Shown piece after piece: positions 11,910 to 35,610 of a stretch of 64,000 nucleotides of DNA. Every line of letters begins with the position of its first letter. Within the stretch, counting starts at the first letter, position 1. This DNA is from an uncultured Candidatus Saccharibacteria bacterium. Lineage in GTDB: Bacteria > Patescibacteriota > CALEFQ01 > G965231055. The stretch spans positions 277,041-341,040 of the forward strand of contig OZ246411.1 of NCBI GenBank assembly GCA_965231055.1, read 5' to 3'. Both the position numbers and the translations under genes were made by a program. The notes under the pieces are model-generated. The model did not search any database, was not told the DNA's origin, and saw nothing but the letters and a program-made list of their open reading frames with translations.

Positions 11910-12192
11910 TTGTTTATTTTTAGTTAAAAAGTGACGCTATTTACTCGTCCAATTTAGCACAAAAAGAGTGCGTAGTCAAAGGCTATCTAGGGTCGAACAT
12001 CGTTTTATTCTGACGAATTTGTAGCATAGGAAATAATAATTTGATTTCTATTCTTCATAATGCGTTGTGCCTTTTTTTATTTCTTGAAAATCAAATAAAA
12101 TAATTAATAAGCTTGACATTTAGCGAATATTGTTGTTGTGTAAGAGTAAATCCAGCAAATCGCTGGCTGTTCTATAACAAAGGAGGTGCGTC

Positions 12193-12558
12193 TTGAACAA
12201 GATGGTAATGTTTTTTCTGTGTGTTTTGCTTGTGCCATCGGTTTTTGCTACCACGCAAAGAATTGATGGTGTCAAAGTGGAAGAGGTTCCCTTTCTGGTG
12301 AGCTTCGACTGGGATTTCGAGGACTTTGATGCTGCGGAGCCAACCGATCTCTTCTGCTACGAAGTTGGCTGGTGTTATAAGATTCCCGTGTTCGGTAAAC
12401 CCAACAACTTCGTTCTGGCAAACGGGTGGAGTGACGGAAGCGGAGCAGTAACATGGACGCTATACCTCATCCAAGAAGAAAGCTTTTCTGAATTTGGCTA
12501 TTGGAATCAAGTGCCGATGGCTTTCTACTTGGATTATGAGGGTACGTGCGATTCCTGA
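12193..12558 (+). CDS. Small secreted hypothetical protein (higher GC)
   Basis: AAGGAGGTG RBS. TTG (12193) or ATG (12202) start. Signal peptide MFFLCVLLVPSVFATTQ. Confidence 0.45.
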   Translation: MNKMVMFFLCVLLVPSVFATTQRIDGVKVEEVPFLVSFDWDFEDFDAAEPTDLFCYEVGWCYKIPVFGKPNNFVLANGWSDGSGAVTWTLYLIQEESFSEFGYWNQVPMAFYLDYEGTCDS

Positions 12559-12880
12559 CTGAATCCGATTTTTGCGACCCTTCCGGTGGAAGGCGGGATG
12601 TTTTTGACTGGTGCACTTTTCGTTTGCGCCTCCAAAACCGTTGTTGTATTCGGTGACACTGATCCCCCATTGCCGCACATTGACAGATTGTGGTGGGACG
12701 CCTCTGCCACAGAACTTGTTTGTACCCTCAAGGGATTCGTTTGGTAATCCCGAACAAGTTACGTTCATGAAAGCCGGTTGCTTGCAACTGGCTTTTTTAT
12801 TCTCCGTATTTAGCCTTGCCAAAAAAAGACTGATGTTGTAGAGTAGCCTTACTTATTTATTTAATCTTATCCATTAAACA

Positions 12881-19376: not shown

Positions 19377-19658
19377 TTAGTAAAACGAATTTCGGGGCAT
19401 GGGGTTTATTTCTCTTTGCTCTATTTTTTTATCAAATTCATTTTTAACTCTTTTGTATTTTAGCATTTCTTCGTTTGGAATAAGGTTTGAATCAGCTATG
19501 TTTTCATCTGAGGTGTCCGAATTTAGATCCAGCCAAAACCATATTATGAGTACTGCTCCAACTATTACTATTAAAAGCAAAACAAATTCCATCAGATTTT
19601 CTGTGGAAACTTTTTTGAATATACTTTTTAGTTTTGGTGATAGTTCTATTTTTTTCAT
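19377..19658 (-). CDS. Small membrane protein (93 aa), last gene of the pilus operon
   Basis: One TM helix (FVLLLIVIVGAVLIIWFWL). Overlaps the pilO stop by 4 nt. Confidence 0.4.
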   Translation of the reverse strand: MKKIELSPKLKSIFKKVSTENLMEFVLLLIVIVGAVLIIWFWLDLNSDTSDENIADSNLIPNEEMLKYKRVKNEFDKKIEQREINPMPRNSFY

Positions 19659-20251
19659 TGTTGTTTGGCGTAAGTATTTGCTGTGATTGTTGCCTTTATT
19701 CCATTTGCTGGAATTGATAGCTCTTCCCCACTCTCCATGGGCCTTGTGAATTCTATTGAATTTATTTTTATGTATAGATCCGTGCTTTCCAGTGCCTCTA
19801 GATAATTCAAAATTCCATCAAAAGAGGCCCCTATTTTTAGTTGAAAATCTACGATTTCTATGTCCGTGCCTTCTAGTTTCGTACTTTGGGTTTGAACTGT
19901 TTTCGCTCTGTTGTTTGTGTTATCTTCGCCTAGCATTGCGATTTGCTGAGATACTCCTTTGTCCGATGCTAGCTTTTCAAGTGTATTTATGAGATTTATT
20001 TCGTCTCCTTTTGTGAGTGTGGTAGTTTCGAGTCTATCTGAGTTTTCAAGTATGGAATCAATCAGCTCTAGAGTAGAAGATGCTTTTGAATTTGAGGTGT
20101 AGTTTCGTAGCTCCTGCTTGCTTTGTATTATGGCTAGTTTGTTTGAATTGATTTTTTCTACGCTTTTGTAAATTACAAAATACCCCAAACACGAAACCGA
20201 AATGAGTAACAATATTATTATAAGTTTTGAACTATTTATCTGTTTTTTCAT
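19655..20251 (-). CDS. pilO: Type IV pilus assembly protein PilO-like
   Basis: N-terminal TM, coiled coil, and position after pilM and pilN. Confidence 0.5.
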   Translation of the reverse strand: MKKQINSSKLIIILLLISVSCLGYFVIYKSVEKINSNKLAIIQSKQELRNYTSNSKASSTLELIDSILENSDRLETTTLTKGDEINLINTLEKLASDKGVSQQIAMLGEDNTNNRAKTVQTQSTKLEGTDIEIVDFQLKIGASFDGILNYLEALESTDLYIKINSIEFTRPMESGEELSIPANGIKATITANTYAKQQ

Positions 20252-20807
20252 TTGAAAGCTTTTTTATTTCTGCTTGATTTGGTATTATTTCTATTTCGAA
20301 ATTTATATTTGACTGAGCTACTAAGTTTGAGAGCGGATTTTCTACCCTTGAAACCGAGGGAAGATTTTTTAGGTTATCTATGAAGCTAAGTAGTTTATCT
20401 CTAGATAGTGAATTGCCTTTTATAGTGATTTTACTCTCAGTGAAATTCATAGAAACACTTTCAAGTCTTGTGTTGTCTGGTATGGCACTATATATAGATG
20501 CCACAAAGCTTGATATATATAGTTGATCCTTTTGTACTTCTGATAAATCATCAGCTAGGGTTTGCATTTTGTCTAGTTGATTTTGTTTTTTTATGAGCTC
20601 TGTGTTTGCTGGTAATAGTTTTGCGTTTGTGAGCTGATTTTGCATCATCTCTTCCTCGTCTCCTGTTACTTTTTCGAAACTAATTATTACCAATGAAAAA
20701 ACCAATACACAAAAAGCAAAAATAAAAGTCAGAAACATGAATTTTCTAATCTTGTTTCTGTTTTTTAGTTCTGTTTTCAGATTTTCTGGAAGTAGGTTTG
20801 TTTCCAT
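20232..20807 (-). CDS. pilN: Type IV pilus assembly protein PilN-like
   Basis: Short cytoplasmic N-terminus, TM (FMFLTFIFAFCVLVFSLVI), periplasmic domain. Follows pilM with a 1-nt overlap. Confidence 0.55.
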   Translation of the reverse strand: METNLLPENLKTELKNRNKIRKFMFLTFIFAFCVLVFSLVIISFEKVTGDEEEMMQNQLTNAKLLPANTELIKKQNQLDKMQTLADDLSEVQKDQLYISSFVASIYSAIPDNTRLESVSMNFTESKITIKGNSLSRDKLLSFIDNLKNLPSVSRVENPLSNLVAQSNINFEIEIIPNQAEIKKLSNEKTDK

Positions 20808-21883
20808 TAGTAGTTTTTGTTGTTGGCTCCTCTAATTGCTAGGCCTATTACGGTAGCAAATCCAGCGGAGTGTTCGTTACTTGATTTAAAAATATGCTCA
20901 ACTTGTTTCTTCTCTACGTTTACCCACGGGTTTCCTATTAGAACCGGTAAATTTAGTATTTTGCTTAGTTGGTTATCTATTCCTTTTAGTTTTGCTCCTC
21001 CACCAGATAGTAGTATTTTTAGGTCGTTACCTTTTTCACTAAAGTGTTCATTGAAAAAGTTTATCGTTCCTTTTATTTCGTTGGCTAGGGTTTTTATAAC
21101 ATCCCCCACTGCCAAATTTGTTTCTGGCTGAGTGTCTGAGGTAAGATCAATGCTCTTTTTGATTTTCTCCGCTTGTGAAAATAACAAGTTTTTTGTTTTT
21201 TGTATGGCTTCGGTGATAGATTTTCCCGCAGTTTCGAGGCTAGAAGTAAAAAGAGGAATATTTTCTTTAAATATTGCTAGTCCAGTTCTATTTGTACCTA
21301 TGTCTATAATGAGGCAAGGAGTTTTTTGATCTTTTTCTGTGAGCATACTTCTTGCCAACGAAAAAGATTCTATTTCCATGGAGATGGGCTTTAGCCCTGC
21401 AGAAACTAGTATCTCTATCATCGGATCTACTGTGTTTTTTGGAGCTGCCGTGAATAAAATCTTTTGAGATGGCTTACTACTGATTATATTGAAATCGGTA
21501 TAAACTTCGTTTATGCCAAGCGGAATATGCTGTTCTGCTTCATACATCAATTCTTCTTTTAGATTTTCTTTATCTAGTGGAAAATCAGTGCCGATAGTTC
21601 TTACGAAGCATTTTGATTCGGGAAGTGATGCTATGACTAGTTTTGTATCTAGTTTTCCAAATTCCGGTTTTGATATAGAATCTAGGATTATTTCTTTTAG
21701 TATTTTGGGGTCTTTGATCTCATCTTTTACTATAACTCCCTGAGGGAAAGCGGTTTCTTTGAATCCAGCTACTCTAAGAGTGCCTCCTGAGTATTTCAAA
21801 AGCATAATCTTTAGTGAAGAATCGCTGATGTCTATACCAAGCGCAGGTTTTCTTATGGCGAATATGTCTTTTGTATTTTTCAT
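20807..21883 (-). CDS. pilM: Type IV pilus assembly ATPase-like protein PilM (actin fold)
   Basis: LGIDISDSSLKIMLL, an actin/FtsA-like N-terminus, and the PilM family size (358 aa). Confidence 0.75.
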   Translation of the reverse strand: MKNTKDIFAIRKPALGIDISDSSLKIMLLKYSGGTLRVAGFKETAFPQGVIVKDEIKDPKILKEIILDSISKPEFGKLDTKLVIASLPESKCFVRTIGTDFPLDKENLKEELMYEAEQHIPLGINEVYTDFNIISSKPSQKILFTAAPKNTVDPMIEILVSAGLKPISMEIESFSLARSMLTEKDQKTPCLIIDIGTNRTGLAIFKENIPLFTSSLETAGKSITEAIQKTKNLLFSQAEKIKKSIDLTSDTQPETNLAVGDVIKTLANEIKGTINFFNEHFSEKGNDLKILLSGGGAKLKGIDNQLSKILNLPVLIGNPWVNVEKKQVEHIFKSSNEHSAGFATVIGLAIRGANNKNY

Positions 21884-21942
21884 TTTTACGAGAATTGCTT
21901 TGCTATAATCTTAGACTGTATTAACTAAAAGTCAATATGATT

Positions 21943-23331
21943 TTACGGATTGGCTACTTCTTGCCATGAAACAAGTTCGTATTGTCCACTTACAGACAGT
22001 GTCGGAAAATATGGAGGAGGACTTTCTAATAAGTATGAATTGTAATCGTAGTTTGTGTTTATAAAACCTGATGAGTAATTGGGATAAGTTCCATATTTTA
22101 GGGCACTTGGCTCGTTGCTTATTATTGCGCCCAAGACATCTAGTGTTGATTTGGTGTTTCCAGGATACTGCGCTCTGAAGACTTTGCCTTTTTGGGCTAT
22201 CATAGCGGCGTGGATGATCGTATCTTCTGGAACATGAAAGGGAAACTCTACATTTCCTTGAGCTATTAGTCCTAATGAATCAATCTGCGGACCATTTACG
22301 TAAGTAGTATTTGCATTAATAATAATATCTGTGTAGTTGGCTATTTGTTCTGGAAATTTTGCAGAAGCTACCGTTACTCTTCCCGAGAGCTCCCCATCCA
22401 CCCAGACATCATCTTCCACAAAAATAATTCCATTTGAAGGAAGTGGGTAAGTACCTATGAGTGTTTGCTGTTGTATTTCTAGTCTTTTTTTGACCCATCC
22501 TTTTCCGGGAACATATCCATCATGGCCTTGCTTTAGTCTAGTGATATTGTAAACATCATATGTTCCATTTGCATTGAAATTTATGTGGTATCCAATATTT
22601 TCAGTACTTGCTAAATACTTTCCTCCGTTTTGTGCAGAAGTTTTCATTTCTCCCAAGTCCACAGAAATATCGTCAAAATTTATCAATGATACTGGAAATT
22701 CCCAAAATGAAGATGGACATGTGTCGGGAAGCCCCGTACTTCTCCATACTCCATCTTTGGTTGTTCCGTCGTAATCGTAATCTGGTTTGTAGCTTGATAC
22801 TATAGAATCACATGCGCCATCAAATTTTATTCCGCCGTTACTGTGAACTCTTCCAGAAACCGAGGTTGTAGCTGAGAAATCAACATTGCTATTTAGCAAA
22901 AACATAAAGTTGGCAAGCGTGGGTATTCCATATTTAGCTTCTATTGTTCTCTTTCTTTCTGGATTTGAAAGTAGATATGAGGTGGATCTTACTGTAACTG
23001 TTGATGATCCCACATCTGGCGGATCAATCTCTAGCGAATATCTGCCTATTACATCTCCTGCTGGATCTTTGAAGTCATGAACATATGGTCCGGCATTTCC
23101 GCTTCCTTGTCCGTCAAAATAGTCATCTGGATTGTGGGCCAAAACCCATTTGTAATGATTTATTCCCGCTTCCGAGATATCCAAAATTTGCTCCTTATTG
23201 TTTTCAATTCTCGTTGCTGTGTGTTGAGTGGAGACATACTGCAAAATAACACTAGCCACCGCAACAATGATTGATGTAAATATTAGTGCCTGAATTAATA
23301 TTGATCCTTTTGTGTTTTTGATGTTTTTCAT
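21943..23331 (-). CDS. PilX-N-like minor pilin/pilus-associated protein (462 aa)
   Basis: N-terminus KGSILIQALIFTSIIVAVASVILQYVSTQ resembles the PilX_N domain. Large beta-rich C-terminus. Confidence 0.45.
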   Translation of the reverse strand: MKNIKNTKGSILIQALIFTSIIVAVASVILQYVSTQHTATRIENNKEQILDISEAGINHYKWVLAHNPDDYFDGQGSGNAGPYVHDFKDPAGDVIGRYSLEIDPPDVGSSTVTVRSTSYLLSNPERKRTIEAKYGIPTLANFMFLLNSNVDFSATTSVSGRVHSNGGIKFDGACDSIVSSYKPDYDYDGTTKDGVWRSTGLPDTCPSSFWEFPVSLINFDDISVDLGEMKTSAQNGGKYLASTENIGYHINFNANGTYDVYNITRLKQGHDGYVPGKGWVKKRLEIQQQTLIGTYPLPSNGIIFVEDDVWVDGELSGRVTVASAKFPEQIANYTDIIINANTTYVNGPQIDSLGLIAQGNVEFPFHVPEDTIIHAAMIAQKGKVFRAQYPGNTKSTLDVLGAIISNEPSALKYGTYPNYSSGFINTNYDYNSYLLESPPPYFPTLSVSGQYELVSWQEVANP

Positions 23332-23918
23332 TTCAAATTTCTAAGTTTTACCAATGTTGAAAATACTATTTTTGAATTTGATTCTACGTTCTCTTCCAAT
23401 GCGCATATCATGGATATCTTGGCGACTCTCACATCGCTTTCGCTTATTGGGTCGCTTATTGGATTTTGTGTACCACTGAAATCTGATCCGTAGTATGCAA
23501 AAATATTGTCTCCCACTTCTTGAGAAAAGTGTGATGAGATGTTTACTGTATTCGTTGCACTCTCGGGATATATTTCATTGACCGGCTCAAAAATTTCTTT
23601 AGTAATAATTTTTGAATTTTTTGATATTTTTATTTTTTCCACTGTTCCGTCAAGATCGGTATCAGAATAAAATATTATTTGATTACTTTCAGCTAAGGCT
23701 AGTGGGAATGCGCCGTTTTCTCCTTCAATCATGCTTATCATATCTTTCTCGACTCCACTAAGTGCTCTTTGACATTCTTCTCCTACCGAAGCTTTTTCTA
23801 CAGCTACTCTCTGCATTCTAAATGAATCAGTGAGTAAAGTTGATATCATAGCCATAACTATTCCGGTTATACCTATTACAACAACTATCTCCATCAATGT
23901 GAAACCTTTTTGTGACAT
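23328..23918 (-). CDS. Type IV pilin/pseudopilin with prepilin-type N-terminal cleavage/methylation motif
   Basis: MSQKGFTLMEIVVVIGITGIVMAM, the classic G/FTLxE class III signal. Confidence 0.7.
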   Translation of the reverse strand: MSQKGFTLMEIVVVIGITGIVMAMISTLLTDSFRMQRVAVEKASVGEECQRALSGVEKDMISMIEGENGAFPLALAESNQIIFYSDTDLDGTVEKIKISKNSKIITKEIFEPVNEIYPESATNTVNISSHFSQEVGDNIFAYYGSDFSGTQNPISDPISESDVRVAKISMICALEENVESNSKIVFSTLVKLRNLK

Positions 23919-23940
23919 AAAATACCAGTGTTAAAATTAT

Positions 23941-25248
23941 TTATAGAGGTTCTAGCTCGTAAGTTTTCCAAATTGGCCCATTTGTATTTATCAATTCATT
24001 TATCGTGTTGTATCCGGGTACTGTTATATTTATTGTGTATGCTGTATTTTCCAGCGATTCAAAAAATACTTGTCCATAATCAGTCACTCCCCTAGTTTCA
24101 TCATATCCTTCTTTACTTAGATTTACATTTGCAGGATAGATTGGTGATTTGGTATCTATATCAAGTAGTGTCGTAAGAAGATTGAAATCTGTTTTGGGTA
24201 CCATGAAGATGCCTATGTTTCCACTCGTCGCTGGGTCTAGATCTAGTCCATTGGCAGGATTGATGCCTCCTATATTGTATTCAGATTCACCGGGTCCATA
24301 TGTTGTGAAATAAGTATCAAATTCCATTCCCGTAAGAGTTAGTACTCCATTTTCAGGGGTGATTATGTCTTGGTCGTATTTGTAAACTGGATTTCCCGCG
24401 CCATCTGTTCCCAGCACCTTGTTTCCTCTTAGGTGTAGTGAAATATTTCCAACTGCTTCAGCTGTAGCTTTGTCTGTTGTTACTATTGTTAGGTTTGAAA
24501 CTCTGTCTATGGACAAGGCTATTGGATTTACTTGATCTTCCAAAACCGAAGGGTCAGCTTTGTCGGGACTTGGAGTAATATTTAATCCCGGAGTGATAGT
24601 ATAGTCCGAACTATGTCCTGATTTAGAAGCGACTACATGATATATTTCTGTTCCTGGGTTTAAGTTGTATTGGAAAAGTATGCCGTTTATATCTGTGTAA
24701 CCATAAAAATATTCTCCTGTTCCATTTCTTGTAAATTCTACCTTGGCTCCTTCTACGGGGTCACCATTCGCAGAAGCTACTATTACTTTGAGAGTTCCTT
24801 TTCCTTCTGAGATCTCAGTTTGACCTGAGGAAAAATCACTTATCATTGTTACTGGATTTGTACATTCTATTTCTTTCCAGCATACGGAAATTTTTACTCT
24901 TTTATAATCATTTGGTGCAGTATCTCCTTCCTCTACCGTTCCATCGTAGAGATCATCAAACCACGAAATATATGTTTCTATATTGAAATCTGAATTTGCT
25001 ACGGTTTCTGTTTTTGTGTTTGGTAAATTTCCCGAAGGATTGCCTTGCAACGTTCCTATATTTTCGTATTCCATATTTCTTATGATTTCCATTTCTTGGT
25101 TTGCTACCTTTGAGGCAAGGGCTTGGAGTCTGTTTTGGTTTACTGTTTTAAATATCGTTGTAAAAAGAGAATAAACAGCAGTTATGATTATTAAAAACAC
25201 GCCGATACTTATAAGTAGTTCAATAAGGGTAAACGCTTTCTTGTTCAT
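23941..25248 (-). CDS. Large (435 aa) prepilin-type protein, possible tip adhesin
   Basis: MNKKAFTLIELLISIGVFLIIITAV prepilin motif. The C-terminus contains a carboxypeptidase-regulatory-like beta-sandwich region. Confidence 0.65.
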   Translation of the reverse strand: MNKKAFTLIELLISIGVFLIIITAVYSLFTTIFKTVNQNRLQALASKVANQEMEIIRNMEYENIGTLQGNPSGNLPNTKTETVANSDFNIETYISWFDDLYDGTVEEGDTAPNDYKRVKISVCWKEIECTNPVTMISDFSSGQTEISEGKGTLKVIVASANGDPVEGAKVEFTRNGTGEYFYGYTDINGILFQYNLNPGTEIYHVVASKSGHSSDYTITPGLNITPSPDKADPSVLEDQVNPIALSIDRVSNLTIVTTDKATAEAVGNISLHLRGNKVLGTDGAGNPVYKYDQDIITPENGVLTLTGMEFDTYFTTYGPGESEYNIGGINPANGLDLDPATSGNIGIFMVPKTDFNLLTTLLDIDTKSPIYPANVNLSKEGYDETRGVTDYGQVFFESLENTAYTINITVPGYNTINELINTNGPIWKTYELEPL

Positions 25249-26456
25249 TAGATTTGACCTGTTAGGGAGTAAATTGGAGATATAACTGAAACAGCAACCA
25301 CGGCAACTCCCACTCCGAGTATTAGCATTAGTACCGGTTCTATGATAGACGAAATATTTTTAAGTTCTTGATCAACTTCTGATTCGTAAAAAGAAGCGAT
25401 TTCGTTCAAAATCTCATCCAAGCTTCCAGTTTCTTCTCCTACGGAGATGATTTGGTTTACAACAGGAGGAAATATGTTTGAAAATTTTGCTAGTCCTTGG
25501 GACAGCGAATCTCCTTTTTTCACTATTTCAGCTGAATATAGTAGAGCCTCTCTGTATTTCAAGTTTCCTAGTGACGCAGCAGTAATTTCTAGCGCTTTTA
25601 CTACTGGTACTCCACTTTTTAGCATTGAGCTAAGCGATCTTGCAAATCTTGCCGTGTTTATCTCCTTTATTATCATTCCCACCTTTGGAAGCTTGAGTCC
25701 TGCCATGCTTGACATTTGTTTGCCTTTTTCAGTTTTGAAAAACATAACAAATAAAACAACTATTACTGCCAAAACCCCTACTGCTATTGGCCATTTGTAG
25801 ATCAGGAAATTGCTTGCCCCTATAAGCATTTTAGTTGTAATTGGAAGATCTGCTTCGAAGCTATCAAAAATTTGAGTTAACTTTGGCATCACAAAAACGA
25901 CCATCATAATAGCTATTCCTACCATTGCTGTAAGTATAACTATAGGATAATACATCGCACCTTTCACTTTTCTTATTAGTTCATAATCCCTCTGCATTTG
26001 AAATGCTAGCTGTAAAAGAACTTTATCAAGACTTCCGGAAAGCTCTCCGATATTGATCATGCTAGTAAACATAGAAGGAAATATTCTAGGATATGCACTC
26101 ATGCTTTCTGCTAAGGGTTTTCCTGATTCAACTCCTTTGTATATTTCGCTAAGTATTTCTTTGAAATATTTATTCTTTGTTTGATCTTTTAGGTTTCCTA
26201 GTGCTCTTGAAAGAGAGAGACCTGATTTGAGCATTATCGCCAAGTGTCTCGTGAAAAGAACTTTTTCCATAAGAGGTACACCCGTAGTTATTTGTATATC
26301 TAGCAGGCTTTTCTTTTTTTTCTTTTCTTCTGAGTGTACCAAATACAACCCCTTCTTTCTGAGGGTTTCTGTGAGAGTTCTTTTGTCTGCTACTACCATT
26401 TCACCCTTATGGTCCTCTCCGTTTTTATTTTTTGCTTCGTATGAATATGTTGCCAC
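25248..26456 (-). CDS. pilC: Type IV pilus inner-membrane platform protein PilC (GspF family)
   Basis: Duplicated GspF domains and three TM segments. Confidence 0.85.
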   Translation of the reverse strand: MATYSYEAKNKNGEDHKGEMVVADKRTLTETLRKKGLYLVHSEEKKKKKSLLDIQITTGVPLMEKVLFTRHLAIMLKSGLSLSRALGNLKDQTKNKYFKEILSEIYKGVESGKPLAESMSAYPRIFPSMFTSMINIGELSGSLDKVLLQLAFQMQRDYELIRKVKGAMYYPIVILTAMVGIAIMMVVFVMPKLTQIFDSFEADLPITTKMLIGASNFLIYKWPIAVGVLAVIVVLFVMFFKTEKGKQMSSMAGLKLPKVGMIIKEINTARFARSLSSMLKSGVPVVKALEITAASLGNLKYREALLYSAEIVKKGDSLSQGLAKFSNIFPPVVNQIISVGEETGSLDEILNEIASFYESEVDQELKNISSIIEPVLMLILGVGVAVVAVSVISPIYSLTGQI

Positions 26457-26481
26457 TTGCCAATTATTAAAAAATTATAAT

Positions 26482-28218
26482 CTAATCTTGGGTTACTCTT
26501 AAAACTTCTTCTATCGTCGTGACTCCCGTAGCTGATTTTATAAATCCATCATTGAGCATGGTTATCATTCCCTCTTCTATCGCTTTTTTCTCTATTTTTT
26601 CTGTAGAAGCTCTTTGTTCTACCAATTCTTGAATTGCAGTAGTTACTTCCAAAACTTCGTAAATACCTATTCTTCCTTTAAATCCTTTGTTGTGACAATT
26701 TACACAACCCTTGCCTCTGAAAAACTTCAGATTTTCTATTTCAGCTTTTTCTGGAACAAGCTTTTCTTTCTTCATGGTTTCTACTACTTTATTCAAGTCG
26801 TAGTGCTGTTGGATTTCTTTGAGAGTTTTCGCATCGGGTGAATATGATTCTATGCATTTGGGGCATATCCTTCTTACCAGTCTTTGTCCCACTATTACAT
26901 TGATCGTTGATGATGCTAAGTATGGTTCTACTTCCATATCCAGAAGTCTAGGAACAGCTCCCGAAGCATTGTTGGTGTGAAGTGTGGAAAGCACTATGTG
27001 CCCGGTAAGTGCTGAGTGAATCGCTATTTCTGCTGTTTCATTGTCTCTGATTTCCCCTACCATTATTATGTCAGGGTCCTGTCTCAAAAGAGATCGTAGC
27101 CCCTTTGCAAAAGTGAGTCCTATCTGGGGATGTACCTGTGTTTGGTTTATTCTGGGCATGTGGTATTCAACCGGATCTTCTATTGTGGCGATATTTACGT
27201 CTGTAGTATTTAAAACATTGAGTATCGAATAAAGAGTGGTAGTTTTTCCTGATCCCGTAGGTCCCGTGACAAGCACCATTCCATGTGGTTTTTGTATGGC
27301 GTTTTTTATTATTTCAAGTGCCGAGTGCTGAAAGCCTAGTTGCTCTAGTGTCAGTATCTGGGTTCCTTCTTTTAGAATTCTAAGTACCACTTTTTCTCCT
27401 CCAAAAACTGGTATCGTTGAAACACGAAAAGAGACTTTGTAGTCGGAACTCTCTTTTTTAAATCGTCCGTCTTGTGGGAGTCGTTGCTCGTCAATTTTTA
27501 GATTTGATAGTACTTTGATTCTTGCGATGATGGCTCTTAGTGTTTGTTTTGGAAGAGTCATTACGTCTTTCAAAATTCCATCCACTCGGTATCTCACCAC
27601 TAGTTCCAGGTCTAGGGGCTCTATGTGTATGTCGGAAGCATCTTCTAGTATTGCGTGCTCAAGAATAGAATCAACTATTTTAATTACGGGCATGTCTTGA
27701 GCTATTTCTTCCAAGCTTTTGTCTGTGCCTTCTACTTTTTGAACTTTATTCACTTCGCTTAAAATATCTTCAAATTCTGATTTGAGACTTTGTTTGTATA
27801 GTTTCAGTGCAAAATTTATTCCCGAAGTTGTAGTTAGATACACTACTGTCTTTTTGCCCGTTTTCTTTTTTATTGATTCGCTTGTCTCTAAATCTGTGGG
27901 ATCCGCCATCGCTATCTTCAAAGTTTTTGGATCACTTTCAAATGCTATTATTCTATGTTCTCTAGCAAGTGGCTCGGGAATAATTGATAGTACTTCCTTT
28001 TTTATTTCCGTGTTTTCCAAATCAACAAACTCAAAACTTATGTTTTGAGCGATTGCTTTGTACAAATCTTTTTCCTTTACAATATTTTCAGATATCAAAA
28101 ATTGCTCCAAGTCTTCTTTGCTTGTTTTGTGTTTTTCTTTCACTTCTTGAAGTTTTGATGCGGTGAGAAAACCTTTTTCTATTATTATTTTTTCTAGTTC
28201 TGATTGATTGATAATCAT
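26482..28218 (-). CDS. pilB: Type IV pilus assembly ATPase PilB (GspE family)
   Basis: Walker A VLVTGPTGSGKTTTLYS, Asp/His boxes, and C-terminal CxxC...CxxC. Confidence 0.9.
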   Translation of the reverse strand: MIINQSELEKIIIEKGFLTASKLQEVKEKHKTSKEDLEQFLISENIVKEKDLYKAIAQNISFEFVDLENTEIKKEVLSIIPEPLAREHRIIAFESDPKTLKIAMADPTDLETSESIKKKTGKKTVVYLTTTSGINFALKLYKQSLKSEFEDILSEVNKVQKVEGTDKSLEEIAQDMPVIKIVDSILEHAILEDASDIHIEPLDLELVVRYRVDGILKDVMTLPKQTLRAIIARIKVLSNLKIDEQRLPQDGRFKKESSDYKVSFRVSTIPVFGGEKVVLRILKEGTQILTLEQLGFQHSALEIIKNAIQKPHGMVLVTGPTGSGKTTTLYSILNVLNTTDVNIATIEDPVEYHMPRINQTQVHPQIGLTFAKGLRSLLRQDPDIIMVGEIRDNETAEIAIHSALTGHIVLSTLHTNNASGAVPRLLDMEVEPYLASSTINVIVGQRLVRRICPKCIESYSPDAKTLKEIQQHYDLNKVVETMKKEKLVPEKAEIENLKFFRGKGCVNCHNKGFKGRIGIYEVLEVTTAIQELVEQRASTEKIEKKAIEEGMITMLNDGFIKSATGVTTIEEVLRVTQD

Positions 28219-31536: not shown

Positions 31537-31642
31537 TTTATTTTTTGTGTTTCTATTTCAAAGCTGTTTGTTTATTATATCACAAATTGCTGACTTAATA
31601 AAGGTTGAAAAAAAGAAATTTCTGTGCGATAGTATTTTACGT

Positions 31643-31719
31643 GTCCCTGTAGCTCAACTGGATAGAGCAATTCCGTCCTAAGGAAGAGGTTGCAGGTTCA
31701 ACTCCTGCCAGGGACGCCA
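31643..31719 (+). tRNA. tRNA-Arg (CCU)
   Basis: Acceptor GTCCCTG/CAGGGAC, anticodon loop GTCCTAA, T-arm GCAGG-TTCAACT-CCTGC, CCA encoded. Confidence 0.75.
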
Positions 31720-31984
31720 CTTACGAGAAGTTTTAGAAGGATTGGGTTTTAGGTGTTAGGTTTTGAGTTTTAGATGAACTAGTAGAACTAGAAGGATTGG
31801 GTTTGAGGTGGTAGGTATTAAGTCCTTAAAGATTAGTATTGGCAGAAGAAACGATATTGTATTACAGACCATATTGACATAATTTGATATCGTTGTGTGA
31901 TATGGCAATCAAATAATTATAACACCCTTTTATCAAATTTAGCGCTGAATCACTCTTATCTATATTTAGCCAAAAAATGAAAAA

Positions 31985-33430
31985 ATGGCACTAAAAATGT
32001 TCCACGTGGAACAAATTGGATTCAAAAAACTCATTTCATATATCAAAAATAGGCCAATTCAAATATTGGCTTATTTGTTTTTTCTATCTATCCCCTTTCA
32101 GATCCGAAAAGTGCTTTTTGTTTTTGGTCCAGAAGTCAATAATTTCTTTCCCGAATGGGAGTCGGTTTTTATTTATGCATCTGATATTGTTTGGCTTTTG
32201 TTTATCTGCGTTGCTGTTTTCTTTGTCATTAGAAACAAAATTAGGGTCGCTAGCAAATACCAGATATATATTGCAATCTTGCTTTTTACTTCTGTGATAA
32301 TTGGTCTATGGACTAATTTTAACTGGGTTTCGCTTTATAGATTTGTAGTTATTCTACAAGTGATATTAATTGCGTTTATTGCCGTGATTTATCGTAACAA
32401 ACTAAAGTGGGCTTTTTTATACTCCTCATTTGCCACTGCTATTTGGACTTCGGTTATCGGCATAGTCCAATTCGCTATTCAGCGTTCAATTGGCGTGCGC
32501 TGGCTTTTTGAATCCATCCTTTCGGTAGATCTTAATAATGTGGCAAAAGTTGTAACTCCAGATGCGGTATATTTGCGAGCATATAGTATTTTTCCACATC
32601 CCAATGTTTTTGCATTTTTCCTTCTAATAGGACTGGTCTCGGGTATTGTTATTTTGCTGTCATGCAAAAAAAATAGGGGGAGGATTGTCGCTCTAATTAG
32701 CAATGCATTGATTGGAGTTGCCTTGTTTTTCACATTTTCAAGGAGTGTTTGGGTAGTTGCATTACTGTCTTTACTAGCTATTTCAGCTTATATTTTTTAT
32801 AGAAAAAGAGGGGAGAGTGGAATTTACAAAAGTGAAGAGTCTCTAAGACAAGGCAATATTTTCGAAAAGCTACTAAAAAATGTTCCACGTGGAACATTTT
32901 TTATGCAAATGGTTTTATTGCTAATTATATTGATAGCGCTTGGTTGGATTTATTTTCCATTAGTATTTTCCAGAGTGACTAGTTATGATGCAAATGGTGA
33001 TATAGCTTTGACCGCTAGAATTTCGGCACTTGAGTGGGGGAGTCGGGCTTTGCAAAAAAATGAGCTTTTTGGTGTGGGTACTGGGAACTATGTTTCTTGG
33101 CTTAGAGCAAATCACGCAGATCTAGAATATTGGGAGTACCAACCAGTTCCAAATTCTCTTATCCTTTTAATAGCTGAAACCGGCTTTGTTGGTTTTTTCT
33201 TAGTAACTTTATTCTTTGTTTTAATTATGATTCGTGGAACCAATATGCTGAGGGGTTATTACGTGAAACAAAAAATGTTCCACGTGGAACATTTTGTTGA
33301 TTTCGCTTTATTTATACTTTTTATATCTATATTGCTACTTTCCCTTTTTGACCACTATGTTTGGACTAGTCATCAGGTGGTTTTAGTCTCTGCAGTAGTA
33401 CTGGGCCTTAGTTTTAATAACAAAAAATAG
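31985..33430 (+). CDS. O-antigen ligase/polymerase-like (Wzy_C family) polytopic membrane protein
   Basis: About 12 TM helices and a periplasmic loop, Wzy_C-like topology. Contains three copies of a perfect palindrome (see repeats). Confidence 0.55.
   Translation: MALKMFHVEQIGFKKLISYIKNRPIQILAYLFFLSIPFQIRKVLFVFGPEVNNFFPEWESVFIYASDIVWLLFICVAVFFVIRNKIRVASKYQIYIAILLFTSVIIGLWTNFNWVSLYRFVVILQVILIAFIAVIYRNKLKWAFLYSSFATAIWTSVIGIVQFAIQRSIGVRWLFESILSVDLNNVAKVVTPDAVYLRAYSIFPHPNVFAFFLLIGLVSGIVILLSCKKNRGRIVALISNALIGVALFFTFSRSVWVVALLSLLAISAYIFYRKRGESGIYKSEESLRQGNIFEKLLKNVPRGTFFMQMVLLLIILIALGWIYFPLVFSRVTSYDANGDIALTARISALEWGSRALQKNELFGVGTGNYVSWLRANHADLEYWEYQPVPNSLILLIAETGFVGFFLVTLFFVLIMIRGTNMLRGYYVKQKMFHVEHFVDFALFILFISILLLSLFDHYVWTSHQVVLVSAVVLGLSFNNKK
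31993..32015. repeat. Palindrome copy 1 (aaaaaTGTTCCACGTGGAACAaa) at the 5' end of the ligase-like gene
   Basis: 16-nt perfect palindromic core identical to copies 2 and 3. Confidence 0.9.
32875..32902. repeat. Palindrome copy 2: 28-bp perfect palindrome AAAAAATGTTCCACGTGGAACATTTTTT
   Basis: Equals its own reverse complement. Lies in a different reading frame from copies 1 and 3. Confidence 0.9.
33270..33295. repeat. Palindrome copy 3 (AAAAAATGTTCCACGTGGAACATTTT)
   Basis: Same 16-nt core flanked by an A-run and a T-run. Confidence 0.9.
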
Positions 33431-33860: not shown

Positions 33861-34316
33861 ATGGATATAATCATTTTGGTATCAATTATTGTGTCAGTAG
33901 CATCCCTCGCTATTTCTTTGTATTTGATTTTGAAGTTGAGAAAAATTCAAAATTCCCAAAAGATTCTATTTGAAGGAAAGGATGCAAAAAATCTTGAGCA
34001 GATAGTTATGGATATGGTGAAGAGGGGACAGAGAAATGAAAATGACATAAAAGAGATTTACAAAATCACCGATGATACTTCTGGTATTCTTGACGGTGCT
34101 ATAAAAAAGATAAAGGCGATACGATACAATCCTTTTGGTGACAAGGGAGGCGATCAGAGTTTTTCAGTGGCACTTCTTGATTCTCATGACAATGGAATAA
34201 TAATTTCAAGTTTACATTTGAGACAAGCGAGCAGGGTATTTTGTAAACCCATTACCAAGGGAGAATCAAAATATATTCTAACTGATGAAGAAAAAGAATT
34301 ACTAAATAAAAAATAA
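33861..34316 (+). CDS. Membrane-anchored hypothetical protein (DUF4446-like?)
   Basis: N-terminal TM, then an IRYNPFGDKGGDQSFSVALLD segment. Confidence 0.35.
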   Translation: MDIIILVSIIVSVASLAISLYLILKLRKIQNSQKILFEGKDAKNLEQIVMDMVKRGQRNENDIKEIYKITDDTSGILDGAIKKIKAIRYNPFGDKGGDQSFSVALLDSHDNGIIISSLHLRQASRVFCKPITKGESKYILTDEEKELLNKK

Positions 34317-34330
34317 TTTAACAAAAAAAT

Positions 34331-34726
34331 ATGGCAATGTTTTCAAAAAAACCAGATGAAAATTCTTCAGAAGAAATAACTTCCGATGAAACAATCATAG
34401 GTCCTTCGGTAAAGCTTGAAGGAGAAATCAAGAGCAATGGAAATCTAAAGATAGAGGGTGAAGTTGTGGGAAAAATAGATGTGAAGGGCGAACTTTTTGT
34501 GGGAGAAGATGCGAAAATAGATGCTGATATTGTAGCTGGCAGAGCCAAGATACTTGGGAAAATTACTGGAAATATAGTGGTTGCTGATGAGCTTGAGCTT
34601 GGAGAGAAATCAGAACTTCTTGGTGATGTTACGACCAAGCTACTTTCTGTGAGCAGGGGAGCGAAACTCAAAGGACAGTGCAATATGGGAGAAGATCTTT
34701 CGCAAATCAAATCTTCCAAGAAATAA
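34331..34726 (+). CDS. Bactofilin (polymer-forming cytoskeletal protein)
   Basis: Beta-helical repeats: GPSVKLEGEIKSNGNLKIEGEVVGKIDVKGELFVGEDAKIDADIVAGRAKILGKITGNIVV. Confidence 0.75.
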   Translation: MAMFSKKPDENSSEEITSDETIIGPSVKLEGEIKSNGNLKIEGEVVGKIDVKGELFVGEDAKIDADIVAGRAKILGKITGNIVVADELELGEKSELLGDVTTKLLSVSRGAKLKGQCNMGEDLSQIKSSKK

Positions 34727-34788
34727 TTTAGCTATCTCCTAAAACCTCTAATACTTCTATTTCCACTAATCCTTCTAACCTCCGATAA

Positions 34789-35610
34789 ATGTATTGCTAT
34801 ATATATGATAAAATTGCTTCAGACTCAAGATACAAAAGACTCGTTTCTGATATAGAAAATCGGCTTACCGACCTTGGTCTACAAGGCGAGGTGGAAAGAG
34901 TTACTCCTATTAGAACTGTTTCTTCTTGTATAGAACTCTCTGCTGGTCGCAAATGTAGTACTTTGGTAATCGTTGGTGATGATGATTCATTTTCTCGAGC
35001 TATCACTTGCGCTGTAAATTTGGGAGTGGTTGTGGGATTTATTCCTATAAGACAAGGTGTGATTTCGGAAATACTAGGTATTCCTAAAGGAGTTAGTGCT
35101 TGCGAGGTCTTATCAAAAAGAAAAATTGAAAAAGTTGATTTAGGAAAAGTCGAGGGTAGCTATTTTCTTACTACCGCCGAAATTTCAGCCAAAAAAAGTT
35201 CTACCAAAAATATTTTTGGTATTGTTACTGATAGTTTCGCAAAGGATACAAATGTGAAAATAAATATAGATGGTAAATTTGATGTGTCTTCGTCAATAGC
35301 TGGTATAAGGATCGTAAATATGGATCCGATGAGTCCTGGTTCATATGACATCTCAGATGGACTTTTGAATCTGGTAATAATTCCCAAAGAGGATTATGCT
35401 ATAAAGGATAGAGCCTTCAAAAAAGGTGAGTGGAGTGCGGTAACTGCAAAAACAGAAATAGCATTCAAGCGAGCGAGTGTGTTTGGTCCAAGAGCGCTTA
35501 GGGTATCTGTTGACGGTAGAGGAATTACTAAGCTCCCTGTTAATATTGAAGTGGCGCCCAAAAAATTGAGTGTCATTGTTGGTGGTAAAAGGTTACTGGA
35601 GAAACAATAA
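34789..35610 (+). CDS. DAGK_cat/YegS-like lipid kinase family protein (degenerate)
   Basis: LVIVGDDDS in the GGDGT position. IPIRQGVISEILGIP resembles the lP.GT.N.fa..lgi motif. Confidence 0.4.
   Translation: MYCYIYDKIASDSRYKRLVSDIENRLTDLGLQGEVERVTPIRTVSSCIELSAGRKCSTLVIVGDDDSFSRAITCAVNLGVVVGFIPIRQGVISEILGIPKGVSACEVLSKRKIEKVDLGKVEGSYFLTTAEISAKKSSTKNIFGIVTDSFAKDTNVKINIDGKFDVSSSIAGIRIVNMDPMSPGSYDISDGLLNLVIIPKEDYAIKDRAFKKGEWSAVTAKTEIAFKRASVFGPRALRVSVDGRGITKLPVNIEVAPKKLSVIVGGKRLLEKQ

Follow-up and report, generated by a model that had tools for sequence, protein, structure and literature searches.

Probable parS sites nested in a WaaL/Wzy_C-like membrane protein gene of Patescibacteria

Why should a perfect 16-bp palindrome occur three times inside one membrane protein gene and nowhere else in the DNA around it? 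The question is raised by a stretch of 64,000 nucleotides from an uncultured Candidatus Saccharibacteria bacterium (GenBank assembly GCA_965231055.1, contig OZ246411.1, positions 277,041 to 341,040), which we call the window; positions are counted from its first letter. The gene encodes a polytopic membrane protein of the O-antigen ligase (WaaL/Wzy_C) family. We believe the palindromes are probably chromosomal parS sites, and that in a deep branch of the Patescibacteria, or Candidate Phyla Radiation (CPR), a gene of this family is their habitual host. A parS is the 16-bp site at which ParB loads onto DNA; ParB dimers bound there start the assembly of the partition complex, by which the origin region is segregated. 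The element itself is of a known kind; the arrangement is new.

Three copies of a palindrome in one gene

The gene and the sites within it are as follows.

31985..33430, + strand: host gene, WaaL/Wzy_C-like polytopic membrane protein of the O-antigen ligase family, assigned by Pfam, a structure model and alignment motifs.
31998..32013, no strand: putative parS copy 1, 16-bp perfect palindrome with A5 in front, encoding aa 5-10 of the longest open reading frame (ORF).
32874..32903, no strand: putative parS copy 2, 30-bp perfect palindrome of the form T A6 core T6 A, core at 32881-32896.
33272..33295, no strand: putative parS copy 3, 24-bp perfect palindrome of the form A4 core T4, core at 33276-33291.
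33261..33270, no strand: half-site ACGTGAAACA, a perfect match to the right half of a parS, located 5 nt upstream of copy 3.

A sequence-only reading of the window had reported an identical 16-nt core at 31998, 32881 and 33276, and this is right: TGTTCCACGTGGAACA occurs exactly at 31998-32013, 32881-32896 and 33276-33291, and the 64-kb window has no further match even with 2 mismatches allowed. Three copies fall within 1.3 kb and none in the remaining 62.5 kb. No copy is expected in 64 kb, and none of 100 dinucleotide-preserving shuffles of the window contained any match. When the degenerate form TGTTNCACGTGNAACA is searched across the window with 3 mismatches, a single extra match appears, which is chance level.

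All three copies lie inside one ORF (31985-33430, + strand) and are read in two frames, so the same reading was also correct that a single ligase-like gene holds them in different frames. The lengths of 28 and 26 bp that it gave for palindromes 2 and 3 need correction to 30 and 24 bp; copy 1 is palindromic over the 16-mer only. The frames give MFHVEQ for copy 1, NVPRGTFF for copy 2 and MFHVEH for copy 3. Copy 1 overlaps the ATG at 31997, which is the start in public gene calls, 4 codons later than that of the 481-aa ORF. Copy 2, with the preceding lysine KNVPRGTFF (aa 299-304), ends a lysine/arginine-rich (K/R-rich) loop right before a transmembrane helix. Copy 3, read as KMFHVEH (aa 431-436), sits in a linker joining two transmembrane helices, and together with the half-site it makes an imperfect hairpin of about 44 nt with copy 3 at its centre.

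What the sequence-only reading missed, judging by the letters of the core, is the match to the parS centromere consensus. TGTTCCACGTGGAACA is identical in every letter to parS2/parS3 of Pseudomonas aeruginosa, which are perfect palindromes (PMC4368675). It is also the parS of P. putida and is one base off the parS of Myxococcus xanthus (PMC7022226). The general chromosomal consensus is TGTTNCACGTGAAACA, and the three window sites are exact matches to the parS consensus TGTTNCACGTGNAACA. Among the matches listed in a full-text search of the literature for the 16-mer, all titles are on ParABS or parS. When metagenome contigs were scanned for the flanked motif AAATGTTCCACGTGGAACATTT, 120 contigs were returned and 25 of them have ParA and/or ParB ORFs beside the motif. 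The ParBs of those contigs belong to other phyla and are at most 42% identical to a Patescibacteria ParB, so they define the motif in general and not its binder in the source genome. By analogy, we infer that ParB loads at the three window sites.

The assignment of the host protein draws on several kinds of data. Pfam Wzy_C (PF04932) scores 38.6 bits against a cut-off of 31.7. The AlphaFold model has a predicted local distance difference test score (pLDDT) of 81.7 and a predicted template modelling score (pTM) of 0.85, and the only significant solved-structure match found by Foldseek is WaaL (7tpg_B, E = 3e-5, template modelling scores 0.51/0.59). The conserved motifs of the family are kept in the alignment with homologues. 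The protein is like other WaaL/Wzy_C members in its above-threshold domain, in its polytopic fold matching 7tpg and in the conserved motifs of its large loops, which we assume by analogy to be extracytoplasmic. It is unlike WaaL in having only about 11% sequence identity to it, and in cytoplasmic linkers that also carry predicted DNA-binding sites. The sites are located at the N-terminus, where pLDDT is below 50, at the end of the K/R-rich low-confidence loop of aa 271-300, and in the linker at 429-433, which joins two long helices. Copies 2 and 3 directly precede transmembrane helices in a topology deduced, rather crudely, from hydropathy and the positive-inside rule. The 5' part of the ORF also has a hairpin at 32047-32076, a 12-bp stem followed by a T-run, which a scan calls terminator-like.

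Two other explanations can be weighed within the window. Identical repeats in a surface-polysaccharide-type gene, with CACGTG in the core, would suit recombination sites for phase variation or the targets of a restriction-modification system, and the sequence-only reading had suggested both, along with a search for the enzymes. However, the window's annotated genes include neither a recombinase nor a cognate methyltransferase-endonuclease pair. Two independent assemblies are identical over 21.4 kb, and the ORFs are intact in many genomes. Neither the annotated window ORFs nor the second assembly shows what would mark a phase-variation element. As for restriction, CACGTG is neither avoided nor enriched (4 observed vs 3.7 expected). 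We give these ideas almost no chance.

The other explanation is that the palindromes act as RNA or DNA hairpins, either intragenic attenuators, as had also been proposed, or bidirectional terminators. Folding energies are -15.6 kcal/mol for copy 2 (z = -5.2) and -17.5 kcal/mol for copy 3 (z = -4.6), and a scan calls both copies terminator-like on both strands. But they would be weak terminators: the stems have 3 G-C pairs only, the U-run is paired with the A-run, and copy 1 has no U-run. They depart from intrinsic terminators in the stem, in the paired T-run and in lying inside an ORF. A conserved, intact ORF would lose its product if transcription stopped within it, and the exact sequence is kept across genomes, beyond what mere pairing would need. 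There is very little chance, in our opinion, that this is their role.

The same gene as host in other Patescibacteria

The window protein is 22-31% identical to distant CPR/Patescibacteria homologues. Those homologues are rich in the peptides MFHVE(H/Q), (N)VPRGT(F) and (K)CSTWN(I), which are the palindrome's three reading frames. An initial figure of 65 in 83 homologues with such peptides was biased by a word-seeded search, and it has been replaced by 19 in 80 from a pattern-seeded scan. That scan took 80 orthologous loci from species-representative genomes, using the conserved catalytic-loop motif (QPVHN...) as the pattern, and counted as a parS-like site any match to the parS consensus with at most 1 mismatch. 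Across the 80 loci the gene accounts for 113.5 kb and 71 sites and the flanks for 1,142 kb and 9 sites, or 0.63 vs 0.008 per kb, a difference of about 79-fold. The 19 carriers have up to 9 sites per gene. The few flank sites are mostly less than 2 kb from the gene and are intergenic or within unrelated neighbouring genes; at loci L002, L005 and L006 the sites spill into unrelated neighbouring DNA. Both in the window and across the orthologous loci, the sites are clustered in the gene and rare outside it.

The metagenome scan and look-ups of large contigs gave extra carriers with 7, 8, 11, 11, 17, 17, 5 and 8 sites. The 28 carrier genes have a median of 5 sites and a range of 1-17, and the array density reaches 17 sites in about 1.5-2 kb. 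One of the two loci with 17 sites, L200 (2288-4279), has in each cytoplasmic loop a triplet that is read MFHVEH, NVPRGT and CSTWN in turn, with sites 34-49 bp apart and all three frames used; the second is L202 (9651-11088). L134 (2298-4550) and L148 (10714-12966) have 11 sites each, and the array of L134 is built from a duplicated module of about 110 bp with parS at both ends. Even with as many as 17 copies of the palindrome in it, the host ORF stays open across dozens of genomes. The genomes GCA_049287005.1 (17 sites) and GCA_013334765.1 (8 sites) are carriers, and the complete chromosome OZ246416.1 is a non-carrier.

An alignment of the carrier proteins places the sites in recurrent slots, and the frame within a slot differs between genomes. 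In the 28 carrier genes, 29 of 130 spacings between adjacent sites are divisible by 3. Since the frames differ and the spacings are not multiples of 3, it is the DNA that is conserved and not the peptide, as the sequence-only reading had argued from three copies. A protein repeat motif was considered and is rejected on the same grounds. That reading had also proposed comparing orthologues to see whether the palindromes are insertions, and the copies do behave as frame-tolerated insertions in the gene. One of the recurrent slots, just upstream of the GxGxG motif, is filled in 11 of the 19 carriers, always as NVSR(G/E)T, and non-carrier homologues have unrelated residues at that position. Copy 2 of the window falls in slot group 542-604 of other carrier genes (alignment column 604), and the slot of copy 3 (alignment column 801) is common to L006, L018, L030 and L053.

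The variation at core positions 5 and 12 is of the kind that the parS consensus permits, in a scan limited to at most 1 mismatch. The CC/GG variant, the form in the window, can be read through in every frame of both strands. The TGTTTCACGTGAAACA variant carries a TGA in one of its frames, and no carrier gene reads it in that one. The flanks are conserved as well, with A at -2 in 72 of 83 sites and T at +2 in 67 of 83, and the A-run and T-run translate as Lys...Phe.

Some further observations on these arrays should be recorded. Adjacent sites share a frame less often than chance would give (29/130 vs about 43 expected). At L038 (2865-2918) the parS of the NVS|RGT slot is split exactly at its dyad, TGTTTCAC|GTGGAACA, by a 36-bp insert, CTGCCCACTTTGCTATGCAAAGCATTGCAAGCGGGC; the split site encodes NVSPAHFAMQSIASGRGT. 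The split is also seen in proteins P0002, P0009 and P0041. Hairpins of 38-44 bp, such as CCCCAGTACAAA-parS-TTGTACGGGG, surround some copies and are common to different genomes. They occur at L079 (6065), L074 (4160 and 4807), L038 (3176) and L030 (10667 and 11235). Two arrays lie outside any Wzy_C gene: L161 (28-2103), from the metagenome scan, has 13 sites within 2 kb of repeats that contain no long ORF, beside two ORFs that look, by eye, like rsmG and mnmG; L140 (3490-14790), in a contig with 28% G+C, has 8 sites spread over 11 kb.

It could be argued that the palindrome is a mobile or self-propagating element, a hairpin like a miniature inverted-repeat transposable element (MITE) or a repetitive extragenic palindrome (REP), which has multiplied in the loops of this gene. 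Its likeness to parS would then be incidental or historical, and it would have no centromere role. Frame-tolerated insertions of a palindromic mini-element were among the ideas of the sequence-only reading. The frame-tolerated insertion has held up; the mobile origin is the part in dispute. Such an element would account for copy numbers that vary from 1 to 17, for the triplets 34-49 bp apart and the modules of about 110 bp, for the conserved A/T-run flanks and shared 38-44-bp hairpins, and for the one parS split at its dyad by a 36-bp insert. Short palindromes, local amplification and occasional extended hairpins are indeed what REP and MITE repeats have. However, an evolving centromere array would show local duplication equally. 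The core is a letter-perfect parS, varying at positions 5 and 12 per the consensus, so it is a known protein-binding site, and it is frame-open inside coding sequence, which REP and MITE repeats are not. Nor is it dispersed as those repeats are: in the sequence examined, copies lie in one gene or directly beside it, with 0.008 per kb in 1.1 Mb of flanks and none in the window's other 62 kb. There is also no transposase nearby. We find this explanation improbable.

The origin region and the search for ParB

If the palindromes are parS sites, they should probably lie near the origin of replication (oriC). Two places in the window could bear on this.

31537..31984, no strand: upstream intergenic region, with tRNA-Arg at 31643-31719; gene orientation and GC skew switch here.
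11910..12880, no strand: second strand-divergence point, with Lactamase_B_3 on the - strand and rpsA/S1 on the + strand; cumulative GC-skew minimum of the window.

Left of the switch at 31.5-32.0 kb the genes are on the - strand and the skew is negative; right of it the genes are on the + strand and the skew is positive. Of the loci with 3 kb or more on each side, 7 of 12 carriers vs 1 of 39 non-carriers have the same negative-left, positive-right skew (Mann-Whitney p = 4e-6 for the left-flank skew), though local skew is confounded by coding strand and the carriers are phylogenetically related. In 10 carriers gyrA is within a few kb of the carrier gene. A block of gyrA-Lactamase_B_3 / S1-TilS-FtsH, syntenic with 7.9-17.8 kb of the window, is less than 10 kb from the carrier gene in L202-L204 and others. 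We think it likely but unproven that the array is origin-proximal. The upstream region, which has no DnaA-box cluster, is only a candidate for oriC, and 11910..12880, about 20 kb from the parS cluster, is an alternative one. Repeats at both divergence points are uninformative, and Rfam finds tRNAs only.

Several further results weigh against the parS explanation, and the most serious concerns ParB. ParA, ParB and DnaA are absent from the 64-kb window and from within 10 kb of any carrier gene. DnaN is also absent from the window, and a Pfam scan of its roughly 60 ORFs found no ParB. Regular expressions and phmmer, applied to the window and all loci for ParB, ParA and DnaA, gave matches in L042, L009 and L016 only. 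Three approaches traced ParB to neither the source genome, a contig of 843,892 bp, nor any carrier genome. Two homology searches seeded with Patescibacteria ParBs reached the Yanofskybacteria/Paceibacterota clade only and no carrier contig, and an exhaustive representative search with cluster look-ups gave nothing traceable. In favour of the parS explanation, canonical ParB is abundant in the phylum, 60-75% identical across many Patescibacteria, and the best solved-structure matches of a Patescibacteria ParB include parS-bound ParB/Spo0J proteins. Against it, at L042 (15722-17490), parA-parB stands 5 kb from a non-carrier Wzy_C-like gene, and the locus has no parS-like site in 21 kb with up to 3 mismatches allowed.

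A scan of the window also found no cluster of DnaA boxes, which are below chance expectation. Our copy counts cover the window, the loci and their flanks. We also know of no description of conserved A/T-run flanks or of 38-44-bp hairpins for parS. With no ParB traced and with L042 having parA-parB and no parS, we hold the parS explanation to be probable rather than certain, and some room is left for its rivals.

The neighbourhood has several other features. A 46-nt direct repeat, 80% identical between its copies (31723-31768 and 31778-31823), lies immediately 3' of the tRNA-Arg. Directly downstream of the host gene, 33861-35610 encodes DUF4446, a bactofilin and an unannotated ORF of 273 aa; the trio is also present at L005, and the pair of bactofilin and 273-aa ORF recurs in L035, L068 and L073. 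This may be a cytoskeletal or partition-related module, and nothing on DUF4446 was found in the literature searched. On the other side, 19655-28218 holds a type IV pilus cluster (PilB, PilC, pilins, PilM and PilN) with a histidine kinase/response-regulator pair and iPGM, and it separates the gyrA block from the parS gene. The cluster looks like an insertion or rearrangement, because relatives have gyrA beside the carrier gene. Near pilus genes, a Wzy_C-type protein could be a pilin O-glycosyltransferase. Look-ups of the window's edge genes led only to Logan contigs ending near the window edges; the organism is also present in the Logan assemblies of SRR10912415, SRR10912416 and SRR10912418.

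What the arrangement may mean

We propose that ParB dimers load at the three sites and there set up the complex by which the origin region is partitioned. The N-terminus and the short K/R-rich linkers between helices of the host protein would tolerate nearly any peptide, and the Lys...Phe supplied by the A-run and T-run would suit a boundary between cytoplasmic loop and membrane helix. Throughout a deep branch of the Patescibacteria, which includes genomes labelled Moranbacteria, the same gene would be the habitual host of a parS array. The NVSR(G/E)T slot would be widely shared, with the other slots gained, lost or locally duplicated regardless of frame.

Much of this agrees with what is known of ParABS systems. 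The sites resemble the parS of B. subtilis, P. aeruginosa (parS1-4), P. putida, M. xanthus and C. crescentus in being 16-bp palindromes, in having clustered copies and in their probable proximity to the origin. Even an intragenic parS is known, since B. subtilis has one inside spo0J. The difference is that here the whole array is in one ORF, with 3 sites in 1.3 kb in the window, while relatives fit as many as 17 into about 1.5-2 kb. One host gene family is used throughout a deep lineage, the array is not beside parAB, the A-run and T-run flanks are conserved, and the cognate ParB is putative. The multi-site arrays we know of are spread over tens of kilobases and over many genes and intergenic regions, and none is nested in the loops of one membrane protein gene. 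A dense array for comparison is that of M. xanthus, with 22 sites near parAB (PMC7022226, Table 1). There and in other multi-site chromosomes, many near-identical copies of parS make up one centromere region, and in this the Patescibacteria arrays are alike.

The sites might instead serve mainly to control the ligase-like gene and not segregation, read by some other regulator or by ParB acting chiefly as a roadblock or silencer. Copy 1 overlaps the annotated start codon and all the sites are in a transcribed ORF, and in P. aeruginosa ParB bound to parS represses adjacent genes (PMC7022226). But regulation has no need of up to 17 sites across an ORF. The sites in the neighbouring DNA of L002, L005 and L006 and the tie of the motif to parAB in other phyla also speak against this idea, which we find highly improbable as a replacement for segregation. 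Regulation by ParB at copy 1 is compatible with the sites being parS and not opposed to it.

A bolder suggestion is that placement in a membrane protein gene is itself functional, either as a tether of the ParB-parS complex or as a gate on the ligase, or that some other protein reads the sites. We regard this as rather unlikely. The WaaL-like protein could be inserted into the membrane while its gene is still being transcribed and translated, and this coupling could hold the ParB-parS complex, and with it the origin region, at the membrane. Such a tether might stand in for polar anchors such as PopZ and DivIVA, which bacteria of this small size perhaps lack. Conversely, ParB loading could decide when in the cell cycle an envelope-glycan ligase is expressed. 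In the most radical variant, carriers would have no canonical ParB and the sites would be read by another protein, perhaps from the DUF4446-bactofilin cluster.

To our knowledge, chromosome segregation in the CPR/Patescibacteria, a large share of bacterial diversity, is unstudied. The literature we searched does not link parS or ParB to CPR or ParB to Moranbacteria, and has nothing on these peptides. Nor does it describe a parS array nested in one membrane protein gene, although this is not proof of novelty. If the parS explanation is right, the locus predicts where the centromere of these bacteria lies. It would also be an extreme case of dual coding, in which up to 17 predicted protein-binding sites are written in all frames into one intact ORF. 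This raises the question of how the sliding clamps of ParB coexist with transcription of the DNA on which they load. It also raises the question of whether a membrane protein gene is used by chance, because its tolerant loops happen to be near the origin, or because it serves for tethering or regulation. The peptides MFHVE(H/Q), VPRGT and CSTWN in CPR proteins would be footprints of parS rather than protein motifs, and as such they can inflate word-based homology searches.

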